A stretch of DNA of 64,000 bases from Bacteroidales bacterium UBA6088 (GCA_002428635.1 DIXE01000025.1:713-64712); one strand, 5' to 3'; shown: positions 37,308 through 43,793, counted from the first letter of the stretch. Translations and numbers: made by a program. Notes: a model not told the origin generated them from the letters alone.

Positions 37308-37985
37308 TCAGCCGTTAAGGCAAATATTCAAAAGCATCTGCCTGTTTACTATGCTTATATTCCTTCCTTCCATTACAATAATCCCGTCTCTTACAAATTC
37401 TGACAACACGCGACTGACACTTTCCCGGCTTGCATCCACAAGGTTTCCCATCTCCTCCTGATTGATCGACAGAGTAAATTTTTCTGAACGGTAAATCTCA
37501 TCGGCAAATTCCAGAAGAACTCCGGCAATCTTTCCCCTTATATGCCTCTGAGTACGGTTAACGCACTTCTGATAGGACTCCAGTTCGCTTTTGCAAAGCT
37601 CAAGAATTATCTGGTTGCTAAAGTCAGAGTTTAAATTCAGCAATTTCCGGAATGTAGTTATGTCTATGAAACAAACCTCAGAAGGCTCCACTGCAGTTAC
37701 AGAATACTGGTTTACTTTGTCGCCGAAAGTTGTTGGCAATCCAAGATAATTCCCCTGGCTTACAATTCTTACAACCTGTGTGTAGTAAGGTCCCTGAATA
37801 TGTATCTTGGCAAGACCTGTCCTCAGGTAGGCAACATTGGTAGAATAGGTTCCCTGCTTAATTATTGAGTCTCCCTTTTTGAATTTTACTGTTACGCAGT
37901 TTGCAGACAACTTTTCACTCTCTTTGGCTGTCAGTTTTTCTGCAGCTTTTGACTTCATTGTGCAGAAGTTACACTTGTTATCCAT
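37308..37985 (-). CDS. Crp/Fnr family transcriptional regulator with FNR-like cysteines
   Basis: cNMP-binding beta-roll, HTH QEEMGNLVDASRESVSRVLSEF, Cys5-x2-Cys8, Cys30 and internal SEVC105FID. Confidence 0.9.
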   Translation of the reverse strand: MDNKCNFCTMKSKAAEKLTAKESEKLSANCVTVKFKKGDSIIKQGTYSTNVAYLRTGLAKIHIQGPYYTQVVRIVSQGNYLGLPTTFGDKVNQYSVTAVEPSEVCFIDITTFRKLLNLNSDFSNQIILELCKSELESYQKCVNRTQRHIRGKIAGVLLEFADEIYRSEKFTLSINQEEMGNLVDASRESVSRVLSEFVRDGIIVMEGRNISIVNRQMLLNICLNG

Positions 37986-38021
37986 TTGTATCCGTCAAAA
38001 TTTTTGCAAATATAGAAATAA

Positions 38022-38037
38022 TGTGACCAATATCACA
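38022..38037. promoter_or_regulatory. CRP-type operator TGTGA-N6-TCACA
   Basis: Perfect TGTGAccaataTCACA in the divergent spacer between the Crp/Fnr gene and the dsrE-tusA-hdr operon. Confidence 0.75.
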
Positions 38038-38129
38038 ATTTTTATAGTTTAAAATCATAGCTCAATTTGCTTGCATTTATGCTTATAATTGCTTACTTTG
38101 CACATAAATAAAATTTAATACAAATTACT

Positions 38130-38696
38130 ATGCAAGAGGATTTACAGCAGAAGATTGACCAGTTAAGCAACGAGGTCGAAAATCTGCAAAAAAAGGTAAA
38201 AACTATTCAGAACAGCAGAAAAGACCAGCTATCCATTGCCTGTGTATCGGGAGATATGGACAAGATACTGGCCACAATGATTATTTCACTTGCAGCGGCT
38301 GCAATGGATACAAAAGTCAAGATATTTTTCTCATTCTGGGCTCTGTCTGCTCTGAGGGATCCAAAAAAGAATCCGAAAGGTAAAGACATCATCTCAAAAA
38401 TGTTCGGTTTTATGCTGCCAAAAAGTAAGAACAACCTTGGTCTGTCAAAGATGAATATGTGCGGAATGGGACCTGTGATGATAAAATATCTTATGAAAAA
38501 GCACAACGTTCTCTCTCTGGACGATATGTTTAAAACCGCAGGAGAACTTGGAATCGAAATAATTGTTTGTGAAATGTCTATGGGTCTTATGGGATTCAAA
38601 AAGGAGGAGATGATAGATTATCCTCACCTCACTTATGCAGGAGCTGCAACATTTGTAACCGATGCCGGAGAGAGTGCAGCACAACTATTTGTATAA
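38130..38696 (+). CDS. DsrE2-type (DsrE/DsrF/DrsH-like) sulfur-carrier protein
   Basis: SGDMDK..A.MII...AAAM, IFFSFWAL..LR, LSKMNM.GMG..M, conserved VCEMSM Cys, GAATF. Confidence 0.85.
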   Translation: MQEDLQQKIDQLSNEVENLQKKVKTIQNSRKDQLSIACVSGDMDKILATMIISLAAAAMDTKVKIFFSFWALSALRDPKKNPKGKDIISKMFGFMLPKSKNNLGLSKMNMCGMGPVMIKYLMKKHNVLSLDDMFKTAGELGIEIIVCEMSMGLMGFKKEEMIDYPHLTYAGAATFVTDAGESAAQLFV

Positions 38697-42420: not shown

Positions 42421-42427
42421 TTCAAAA

Positions 42428-42703
42428 ATGATGATAGAAAAGAAAGAGACATTTAAGATATTGAGGGAACAACACAAGGTTCCCGAAAGTGTAAAAGAGA
42501 ATCTAAAGGATTTCAACAAGATAAAAAGATCAATTCTTCTGGCTCTTAAAGAGGAAGATCTCACTGTAGCCGAATTATCCGGAAAGCTTCAGATACCTGC
42601 AGACGAAATTGTTTACTATCTTCTCTCGCTGGTAAAGTTCGGTTTTGTAAAAACCGGAGAGATTGACAGTATGGACGAGTACTTCAAATATAAACTTAAG
42701 TGA
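42428..42703 (+). CDS. Small winged-helix (ArsR-like fold) protein
   Basis: ILLALKEEDLTVAELSGKLQIPADEIVYYLLSLVKFGFV..GE.....YFKY. Embedded in the hdr operon. Confidence 0.7.
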   Translation: MMIEKKETFKILREQHKVPESVKENLKDFNKIKRSILLALKEEDLTVAELSGKLQIPADEIVYYLLSLVKFGFVKTGEIDSMDEYFKYKLK

Positions 42704-42704
42704 G

Positions 42705-43793
42705 ATGGCAAAGATTGACAGGAAATTCTCCAAAGAATTAAAGAAATACGGAGCTTTTGATTTCACCTCCTGCTACAATTGCGGCAACTGCACTGCAGTA
42801 TGCTCACTTGCAACAAAAGATGAAGCTTTCCCAAGGGAGCTGGTCAGATTATCTGCACTGGGAGTTAAGGAAGAGATAGAGTCTTCACTCAAGCCCTGGT
42901 CCTGTTACTATTGCGGGGAGTGTTCTAGCCTCTGCCCACAAAGTGCAGATCCGGGTGAACTTATGATGTCACTCAGAAGGTGGCTAACTGCAAGATATGA
43001 CTGGACAGGATTATCAGGTTTGCTTTACAAGTCTGTTCCGGTGCTCGTTGGGGCAATGCTTCTAATGGTTGCTGCAGTAATTTTGTTCGCAAATTACAAG
43101 CAATTTAATGTTAAGGAGATTATGCACTTTGGCCATCTTTTTGAGATGTATGCTATTGCCACAGTCTTTCTCCTAATACTGTTGCCAAATATATTAAGAA
43201 TGTGGTATTTAACGGTGATTCGTCCTGGGAAAAATCCTCCCTTTACAAAATATTTTAAAAGCGCAGGAGTGCTATTTTTACATATGTTCACCCAGAAAAG
43301 AACCCTTGGATGTGACGATAATCAAAGGAGATGGTTCGAACATTTTATACTGGTAATCGGATACCTTACCCTGTTGATGATGACAGTCCTTCTGGGCTGG
43401 ATGGGCACAGAAAATATATTTGTTATTGTGGCAGGTTATCTGGTGAGCGCAATTGTTTTTATTGTCACAGCAGATTTTGTTAAAGAGAGGATCAAGGCAA
43501 AAAAAGAGTTAAACCGGCACTCCCGGCTAAAAAAGTTAAGCCGTCATTCCCGGCCATCTGATTGGCTGTTTGTGATATGGCTTTTTCTGATGGGATTGAC
43601 CGCTTTTGCAGTAAGACTGTTTGTTGACCTGGACATTATAAATAACAATCTGTGGATCTACCTGATCCATTTGACAGTGCTGGTTCAGTGGGCACTGATA
43701 ATTGTTCCCTTCGGAAAATGGACACATTTTATGTACCGTTCATTCTCGATGTACTTTCAGTCATTAATCACAGAAAATAATAAAGGAAGTTAA
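42705..43793 (+). CDS. QmoC-like protein: HdrC-type 2x[4Fe-4S] domain fused to a cytochrome b-like membrane domain
   Basis: [23 protein letters not shown], then about six TM helices with four TM His ([20 protein letters not shown]). Start refined to MAKIDRK (42705). Confidence 0.82.

Follow-up and report, generated by a model that had tools for sequence, protein, structure and literature searches.

A Qmo-like HdrA operon with sulfur-carrier genes, conserved across Bacteroidota, points to a possible link between the menaquinone pool and protein-bound sulfur

We analyzed a stretch of 64,000 nucleotides from Bacteroidales bacterium UBA6088 (GCA_002428635.1, DIXE01000025.1:713-64712; referred to as the window), focusing on a compact operon in which genes for two sulfur carriers, a DsrE-family protein and TusA, are followed by genes for an HdrA-containing complex that resembles QmoABC. 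A first-pass annotation, made from the sequence alone, had described seven genes in tandem and a divergent Crp/Fnr regulator gene; all eight open reading frames (ORFs) were found where it had placed them, and their domains were confirmed with Pfam and NCBIfam models (Table 1). The genes are tightly packed, with successive gaps of 29, 9, 9, 11, ∼7, and 1 bp, of which the fifth becomes a 20-bp overlap (-20) depending on the start codon assumed. The most likely start of the small ORF is the ATG at 42428, where its orthologues align, with 42401 or 42404 as possible alternatives. Because the homologues of the QmoC-like protein are 347 to 360 amino acids (aa) long, its gene most likely starts at ATG 42705 rather than at TTG 42663.

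Table 1. Features of the operon region in window coordinates, with the corresponding subunits of the qmo locus of Desulfofundulus thermobenzoicus
Feature	Position	Strand	Annotation	Desulfofundulus counterpart
Crp/Fnr-family regulator gene	37308..37985	-	Divergent from operon; Pfam cNMP_binding and HTH_Crp_2	
Perfect CRP-type palindrome TGTGACCAATATCACA (TGTGA-N6-TCACA)	38022..38037	.	Divergent promoter region	
DsrE-family carrier gene	38130..38696	+	PF13686, E = 3e-44	
tusA	38726..38977	+	PF01206, E = 3e-24, 85 bits	
MvhD/FlpD-fold gene	38987..39370	+	PF02662, E = 2e-28, 99.5 bits (above cut-off)	QmoB C-terminal domain, residues 599-724; 30% identity
HdrA1 (QmoA-like), 433 aa	39380..40681	+	NF040770, E = 1e-141, model positions 132-561	QmoA; 36% identity, full length
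HdrA2 (QmoB-like), 575 aa	40693..42420	+	NF040770, E = 2e-146	QmoB residues 1-581; 29% identity
Small winged-helix-like ORF, ∼92 aa	42428..42703	+	Weak HTH_5 and TrmB matches, below cut-off	
QmoC-like membrane subunit gene	42705..43793	+	NF038018 positions 2-360 of 360, 135.7 bits	QmoC; 36% identity, full length

More than 3,000 homologues of the QmoC-like protein were found, nearly all of them in Bacteroidales metagenome bins. For the survey of its genetic neighborhood we used one genome per species, which gave 134 matched genomes and 80 loci that were kept; the 61 loci with at least 6.5 kb of sequence upstream of qmoC are referred to here as full loci, and all gene-presence counts are based on them. 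The order crp, dsrE-tusA-mvhD-hdrA1-hdrA2-small gene-qmoC was repeated throughout the Bacteroidota loci, and an arrangement that recurs in 80 Bacteroidota genome loci is far from chance. Genes for mvhD and hdrA were each present in 60 of the 61 full loci and the DsrE-family gene in 59, while tusA was called as an ORF in 57 and recovered by tblastn in the other 4, so that it is effectively present in all 61. The small ORF stands alone in 58 full loci and is part of a fusion in the remaining 3, and crp lies upstream of the operon in 52. A lack of co-conservation of dsrE and tusA with the hdrA genes, which the first-pass annotation had named as grounds for refuting its idea, is thus not seen. An all-against-all clustering of the locus ORFs revealed no other co-conserved genes, the next cluster covering 14 loci. 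Since the flanks are otherwise unrelated between loci, selection keeps the operon genes together. Among the carriers of the operon are Bacteroidales bacterium CF, Seramator thermalis, and Porphyromonadaceae sp. NP-X, as well as bins labeled Proteiniphilum, Paludibacter, Lentimicrobium, Mangrovibacterium, Draconibacterium, Prolixibacteraceae, Rikenellaceae, and Dysgonomonadaceae; Proteiniphilum, Paludibacter, Lentimicrobium, and Seramator are genera known only as fermenters.

As a comparator for the complex we used the sat-aprB-aprA-qmoA-qmoB-(CCG protein)-qmoC locus of D. thermobenzoicus, with which the operon shows one-to-one homology, subunit by subunit, supporting the earlier description of a Qmo-type module. 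Given that its subunits match a genuine Qmo locus in this way, “Qmo-like” is, as far as the predicted proteins tell, the correct name for the operon architecture. As in QmoABC, two HdrA-like proteins with flavin adenine dinucleotide (FAD) and Fe-S sites are encoded side by side. HdrA1 comprises an FAD/thioredoxin-reductase domain, an inserted 2x[4Fe-4S] ferredoxin domain, an FPTLDCSAC motif, and a CxGSRD..CSxxCC cluster; it has neither the N-terminal domain nor the C-terminal ferredoxin domain. It aligns to residues 133-558 of the HdrA in structure 8RVV, where its FPTLDCSAC motif stands opposite the methanogen FPTLDCSMC (the Cys197 equivalent), and it is 46.5% identical to a hydrogenase-linked HdrA. 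HdrA2 has an N-terminal cluster domain (Cys10, Cys12, Cys45, and Cys70), an FAD domain with CSxxCC, and a C-terminal 2x[4Fe-4S] ferredoxin domain, and lacks both the Cys197 motif (no DCxxC) and the inserted ferredoxin domain. The CxGSRD...CSxxCC cluster is thus retained by both proteins. The structure of the Mvh-Hdr complex shows Cys197 as a ligand to the N-terminal cluster of the other protomer, and tandem HdrAs with the same complementarity between Cys197 and the N-terminal domain have been interpreted as obligate heterodimers (PMC9012536). HdrA1 and HdrA2 show the complementary pattern of domains and Cys197 that marks such heterodimeric HdrAs, as in the tandem type of anaerobic methanotrophs (ANME), and because this pattern matches the published rule, they are predicted to be complementary halves of one heterodimer.

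In four of the related loci (L062, L073, L074, and L075), HdrA1 is 912 to 942 aa long, and the same form is found truncated in L079. In the four, an ∼460-aa GltD/NfnB-type module (Fer4_20 plus Pyr_redox_2) sits within the ferredoxin domain of HdrA1. Since the inserted ferredoxin domain is the ferredoxin exit in the methanogen enzyme, this port of HdrA1 is probably tied to NAD(P)(H) in these species.

The QmoC-like subunit aligns end to end with the QmoC model NF038018, with a score of 135.7 bits against a curated cut-off of 300. It consists of an HdrC-like 2x[4Fe-4S] domain with eight invariant cysteines, followed by six transmembrane helices predicted from hydropathy. Conserved residues of the membrane domain are His144, His193, His213, His322, and His341, plus Cys203; when the wider QmoC superfamily is considered, only His213, His322, His341, and Cys203 are shared by all members, while His144 and His193 are specific to the Bacteroidota clade. 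In its AlphaFold model (predicted local distance difference test score, 83), the best fold match in the PDB is Escherichia coli NarI, followed by mycobacterial EtfD.

Of the name mvhD, given in the first-pass annotation to the gene ahead of hdrA1, the fold stands (PF02662) and the canonical cysteines do not, most of them being missing: the protein keeps two of the six cysteines of canonical MvhD (CCxxC, CSG, and GCxxGDC). Its own set comprises Cys41, Cys70, Cys76, and Cys107-x2-Cys110, including three lineage-specific cysteines, among them the Cys107-x2-Cys110 pair, that are invariant in 68 orthologues, and the MvhDs of hydrogenase-linked relatives retain the canonical set. The fusion of the MvhD domain to the C terminus of QmoB, a trait of QmoABC, is not seen here, the domain being encoded by a separate gene upstream of HdrA1. 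The small protein encoded before the QmoC-like subunit carries a conserved C-terminal motif, DDMDEY..YK. In six species across all loci it is fused to the C terminus of HdrA2 (hmmsearch E ∼ 1e-18), the fusions of 732 to 734 aa occurring in species with the GltD/NfnB-type insert in HdrA1, and a homologous small gene precedes qmoC-like genes outside Bacteroidota (L084 and L085). Because of the HdrA2 fusions, the winged-helix-like protein is best read as a subunit or domain of the complex. The same fusions speak against a small winged-helix regulator encoded within the operon, and this reading was rejected.

Both sulfur carriers retain their characteristic cysteines. TusA combines the PF01206 fold with a Cys22-Pro-Gly-Pro active-site motif (CPxP), in which Cys22 is invariant in 65 orthologues; its score with the NCBIfam TusA equivalog model is 50 against a cut-off of 78. 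In the DsrE-family protein, Cys147 is invariant among orthologues. The first-pass annotation had named this gene dsrE2, an identity that does not hold: the score with the DsrE2 model NF047629 is 60 bits against a curated cut-off of 210, and the nearest PDB relatives are 3PNX and 2QS7, which are soluble proteins of the DsrE2B type. DsrE2A-type proteins are defined by two transmembrane helices (PMC12998232). No strongly hydrophobic stretch was seen in the sequence of the DsrE-family protein, on which no transmembrane prediction was run. We therefore refer to it as a predicted soluble, DsrE2B-like carrier. Additional sulfur genes accompany the operon in some lineages. In seven loci (L015, L027, L034, L037, L066, L071, and L072), crp is replaced by a gene for an outer-membrane porin-like protein and two genes for rhodaneses with signal peptides (one single-domain, one tandem), located directly upstream of dsrE-tusA. 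A small classical DsrE is added in nine loci and a secreted DsrE-like protein in some. We infer from the periplasmic rhodaneses and the porin of these loci an indirect support for a function with S0 or polysulfide.

A search of every ORF of at least 150 aa in the window with Pfam confirmed the earlier statement that it contains no CCG-domain HdrB, AprAB, Sat, or DsrAB, and no Apr, Sat, or Dsr genes were found within ±10 kb in the 80 related loci; the link to AprAB and Sat that is typical of QmoABC is thus missing from both. The operon itself is devoid of hdrB in all loci, and neither it nor the window encodes a CCG-domain HdrB together with HdrA and HdrC, as HdrABC and sHdr systems do. The first-pass claim that the complex has no HdrB partner holds for the window but not beyond it: in 8 of the 61 full loci, an hdrC-hdrB pair with a CCG domain, often followed by mrp, lies no more than 10 kb from the operon, in varying position and orientation, and because of these relatives the complex may have an HdrB partner after all. 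Such pairs within 10 kb were seen in L019, L020, L024, L028, L038, L047, L051, L059, and L063; genes for DUF134, NifX-like, DUF89, and radical-SAM proteins are frequent near them, and the ATPase encoded there is mrp/NBP35. The HdrB-like family is widespread in Bacteroidales, with 80 to 88% identity. In two multi-megabase genomes (L086 and L087), hdrCB stands beside genes for a pyridine-nucleotide disulfide oxidoreductase and a metallo-beta-lactamase, without hdrA, and in L086 also beside a thioredoxin-like gene. The source sample of the window is a 2013 hydrocarbon metagenome, whose contigs we compared with an HdrCB locus; the HdrCB-like contigs had depths of ∼125, belonging to another organism, and ∼28, compared with ∼23 for the window contig.

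When clustered at 50% identity, the Bacteroidota QmoC-like family collapses to one full-length representative, and the next relatives are 30 to 40% identical. In a rough neighbor-joining tree, the sequences from Bacteroidota form a monophyletic clade whose sister is a hydrogenase-linked form. Among the non-Bacteroidota relatives, L082 has an apr-sat context; L083 and L084 carry a Mvh-type [NiFe] hydrogenase (small and large subunits), canonical MvhD, HdrA, the small winged-helix-like subunit, and a HycI protease; L089 combines a Mvh-type [NiFe] hydrogenase with NuoE/NuoF-like NADH modules; L088 encodes a large HdrA fusion; and L085 contains HdrA, the small subunit, qmoC, and dsrE. Because the relatives sit with Mvh hydrogenase, NuoEF, or Apr, HdrA-QmoC appears, from gene content, to be a modular quinone-coupled core with an exchangeable cytoplasmic partner. 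In Bacteroidota, TusA and DsrE are the sole partner genes that travel with it. The L083, L084, and L089 clusters may encode a quinone-coupled HdrA complex linked to H2 or NADH, which seems to be uncharacterized as well.

The divergent regulator belongs to the Crp/Fnr class, with a cNMP-binding-like sensor domain, a C-terminal helix-turn-helix, and a palindromic putative operator. Its conserved cysteines (Cys5, Cys8, Cys105, Cys131, and Cys141 in 62 orthologues) suggest an FNR-like Fe-S or thiol sensor. TGTGA-N6-TCACA has its sole match in the 64 kb between this gene and the operon, against an expected 0.04 matches, and of 54 orthologous intergenic regions, 39 share the core GTGA-N6-TCAC in the same position. 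The palindrome is therefore probably the operator of the adjacent regulator.

The setting of the operon is one of housekeeping genes, with dnaJ-grpE upstream and an atpDC-BEFHAG operon downstream. This F-type ATP synthase operon (43829-50954) starts 35 bp past the stop codon of the qmoC-like gene and has the order atpD, atpC, a 131-aa membrane ORF (45603-45998, no Pfam match), atpB, atpE, atpF, atpH, atpA, and atpG. No terminator-like site was seen in the gap between the qmoC-like gene and atpD, where the promoter/terminator scan is uninformative for Bacteroidota. The junction is restricted to the closest clade of the window (L001, L004, L005, L008, and L012), which makes it a lineage-specific synteny. 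Elsewhere in the window, menG/ubiE was found at 26805-27515, as the first-pass annotation had reported; the hydF gene that it also listed could not be recovered among the ORFs of at least 150 aa, where the sole large GTPase is TypA/BipA (7805-9679). A XerC/D-like tyrosine recombinase gene (11211-12122) and a gene for a 913-aa histidine kinase with an N-terminal seven-transmembrane region and PAS domains (30315-33056) are unlinked to the operon in related loci. Two long ORFs, at 3136-4491 (451 aa) and 18027-19865 (612 aa), have no Pfam match at E ≤ 0.001, and the neighbor of the former, at 4498-5742, has a weak match to the outer-membrane protein DcaP only. The GC content drops to 0.35-0.38 between 60000 and 64000, compared with about 0.42, in a stretch holding a HipA-like kinase gene (62107-63114) and an ORF without Pfam match (60875-61459), which may be foreign or toxin-antitoxin DNA.

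Taking gene content and domain structure together, and by analogy with related enzymes, we tentatively propose, at somewhat less than an even chance, that the complex couples menaquinol, a low-potential carrier, and sulfane sulfur bound to TusA and DsrE, and that its usual direction is reductive. The operon proteins would build a membrane complex similar to “type II Qmo,” in which Cys63 of HdrA1 completes the N-terminal [4Fe-4S] cluster of HdrA2, while the two [4Fe-4S] clusters and the NarI-like cytochrome b domain of the QmoC-like subunit link the flavins to the menaquinone pool. The motifs for cofactor binding, the heterodimer pattern, the membrane anchor, the carrier cysteines, and the regulatory box are all evident from the sequence. 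In analogy with the solved Mvh-Hdr structure and with Qmo (PMC3333476), three ports for electrons can be envisaged. A high-potential port would lead through QmoC to menaquinone. The low-potential port would be the ferredoxin domain inserted in HdrA1, serving ferredoxin or flavodoxin, or NAD(P)H where the GltD/NfnB-like module is fused. The third, made up of the C-terminal ferredoxin domain of HdrA2 and the MvhD-like protein, would receive a specific partner, which is AprAB or Mvh [NiFe] hydrogenase in relatives; in Bacteroidota, TusA and the DsrE-family carrier are the only candidates that are co-conserved. Since menaquinol alone would be too weak a reductant, it would have to be confurcated with a low-potential donor, a logic that has been proposed for Qmo (PMC3333476). 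Menaquinol and reduced ferredoxin or NAD(P)H would thus jointly reduce carrier-bound sulfane sulfur to H2S. Polysulfide, S0, or thiosulfate could be the source of the sulfane sulfur, with rhodaneses capturing it in some species, and the outcome would be an electron sink or a sulfur respiration for fermentative Bacteroidales. The S-S bond might be cleaved at the CxxC of the MvhD-like protein or by an HdrBC that is encoded outside the operon and docks on the second HdrA. The FNR-like Crp regulator would govern expression of the operon through the TGTGA-N6-TCACA box.

Several points weigh against this proposal. None of the operon subunits has a recognizable persulfide or disulfide site of a known kind, and CCG/HdrB is missing, which is the weak point of every model. 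TusA and DsrE have no redox cofactor, which leaves their coupling to an Fe-S chain without an obvious route. The hdrCB pair is close to the operon in only 8 of the 61 full loci, and in two large genomes its neighborhood is unrelated. Only three histidines of the QmoC-like subunit are found superfamily-wide, so that binding of two haems is not proven, and the fold match to NarI is weak in E value (∼0.1; probability, ∼1; template modeling score, 0.45). The reaction direction cannot be read from the sequence, and no RNA run carrying the operon sequence was found. The reduction of sulfane sulfur by menaquinol and ferredoxin is energetically marginal, as estimated from standard potentials.

In the most far-reaching reading, which we regard as possible but doubtful, persulfide on TusA and DsrE would be the third substrate of HdrA-QmoC, turned over at a new HdrB-free S-S site such as the CxxC of the MvhD-like protein near an Fe-S cluster, and the operon would encode a respiratory or electron-bifurcating enzyme that has gone unrecognized in anaerobic Bacteroidales. 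Similarly doubtful is the view that the operon encodes only the HdrA/MvhD/QmoC part of a larger Hdr enzyme, in which an unlinked HdrC-HdrB docks on the second HdrA and its noncubane clusters cleave the TusA/DsrE persulfide or a mixed disulfide. Such an enzyme would resemble the QmoAB-HdrBC/HdrD-QmoC arrangement of Gram-positive sulfate reducers, and the Desulfofundulus qmo locus indeed has a CCG protein between qmoB and qmoC. It would also make use of the CSxxCC cluster kept in both HdrA proteins, which is the HdrC contact in the solved enzyme, and it is consistent with the hdrC-hdrB pairs near the operon in some full loci, with the widespread and closely similar HdrB-like family, and with the HdrCB-like contig of the source sample whose depth is near that of the window contig. 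Against it stand the two multi-megabase genomes, where hdrCB has the other neighbors described above and no hdrA beside it, and the lack of hdrB from the window and from the 10 kb around the operon in the closest clade named above.

With the direction reversed, sulfide or sulfane sulfur on TusA and DsrE would be a mid-potential donor, and bifurcation would send its electrons downhill to menaquinone and uphill to ferredoxin or NAD(P)+, for sulfide handling or energy conservation in sulfidic habitats. We consider this rather unlikely, even though HdrA-type flavoproteins run both ways, the midpoint between menaquinone and ferredoxin is, by our own estimate, near the sulfide/sulfane couple, many carriers were recovered from sulfidic environments, among them Zodletone, sulfidic caves, and digesters, and sulfur oxidation is the process with which TusA and DsrE are mainly associated (PMC11094781). 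The operon is not linked to genes for sHdr, rDsr, Sox, or Soe, by which sulfane sulfur could be processed further, no Sqr-like entry step lies within 10 kb, and fermenting hosts would have to dispose of both menaquinol and the sulfane sulfur that builds up. It is very improbable that the complex serves general redox balancing as a quinone-linked ferredoxin/NAD(P)H oxidoreductase and that TusA and DsrE are passengers, providing sulfur to thiolate cofactors or tRNA or to assemble the Fe-S-rich complex. Relatives of the platform do use nonsulfur partners (hydrogenase and NuoEF), and TusA is pleiotropic in E. coli (cited in PMC8477390), but both carrier genes lie inside the operon in essentially all 61 species, between nonconserved flanks, the operon is accompanied in several lineages by additional DsrE proteins and rhodaneses, and a DsrE gene also follows the qmoC-like gene in the non-Bacteroidota locus L085. 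An ordinary QmoABC serving an APS (adenosine 5'-phosphosulfate) reductase encoded elsewhere in the genome is hardly credible. Although every Qmo subunit has a counterpart in the operon and annotation by the Joint Genome Institute (JGI) and in the style of KEGG names the homologues QmoC, genuine Qmo loci are physically linked to aprBA and the carriers include genera known only as fermenters; the QmoC score below cut-off and the lack of apr and sat in the window and in all of the 80 loci led us to reject it. Given the JGI label, surveys of the sulfur cycle may count the operon as sulfate reduction or sulfite oxidation despite the lack of Apr.

If the reductive coupling that we favor is true, fermentative Bacteroidales of digesters, sediments, landfills, hydrocarbon consortia, and sulfidic springs would gain a quinone-linked route for sulfane sulfur, with consequences for the formation of sulfide, the turnover of S0 and polysulfide, and the balance of ferredoxin, NAD(P)H, and menaquinone. 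Should persulfide replace APS, H2, or heterodisulfide as the substrate, this would amount to a new sulfur respiration or to sulfide-driven ferredoxin reduction in a globally abundant group with many fermenters among its members. The small protein substrates and the cultured hosts could make the Qmo mechanism, and confurcation, directly testable. The Qmo/HdrA-QmoC platform is already known, and the sulfur-carrier partner is what is new; the operon is widespread, and from its gene content and context we infer its function. It points to an uncharacterized link between the menaquinone pool and protein-bound sulfur.

A full-text literature search found no description of a dsrE-tusA-mvhD-hdrA-hdrA-qmoC operon, and a sequence search of the PDB returned no Qmo structure, with matches only to methanogen HdrA, HdrC, and MvhD. 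The closest known counterpart in architecture is QmoABC of sulfate reducers and green sulfur bacteria, which shares with the operon the two tandem HdrA-like flavoproteins, the MvhD-fold module, and the HdrC-like/cytochrome b-like membrane subunit, at 29 to 36% identity. In contrast to QmoABC, the Bacteroidales operon has no AprAB/Sat partner and includes tusA and dsrE; its MvhD is encoded separately, ahead of HdrA1, and has another set of cysteines; and it has an extra small winged-helix-like subunit, a QmoC that scores below the cut-off, and the clade-specific His144 and His193. Its hosts, too, are different, including genera known as fermentative Bacteroidales. The “type II” Qmo of Gram-positive and archaeal sulfate reducers is also found in organisms without Dsr or Apr, where its role is unknown (PMC10504309). 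The main text of this 2023 survey mentions neither Bacteroidota nor a TusA link for type II Qmo, and its supplementary tables cover Dsr-positive genomes only.

The sHdr-LbpA system is similar in that TusA and DsrE-family carriers (the DsrE3/DsrE2 relay) are encoded beside Hdr-like genes (PMC11094781). However, sHdr has HdrB1/B2, HdrC1/C2, and a single HdrA and needs LbpA, none of which applies to the Bacteroidales operon, and it lacks a QmoC-type membrane subunit. The MvhADG-HdrABC complex of methanogens and the tandem HdrA of ANME share with the operon the HdrA domains, the FAD sites, the Cys197 complementarity, and an MvhD-fold entry module, whereas the Bacteroidales operon has a QmoC-like subunit in place of HdrBC, no hydrogenase, and an MvhD whose canonical cysteines are mostly unconserved. 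Its nearest relatives outside Bacteroidota are the L083, L084, and L089 clusters, with 41 to 46.5% identity in HdrA1 and 33 to 36% in the QmoC-like subunit; L084 also shares the small subunit before qmoC, and L083 a nearby Crp gene. These clusters differ from the Bacteroidales operon in their [NiFe] hydrogenase partner (with NuoEF in L089), in their canonical MvhD, and in having no TusA or DsrE, the two carriers that accompany the same quinone-coupled core in Bacteroidota.

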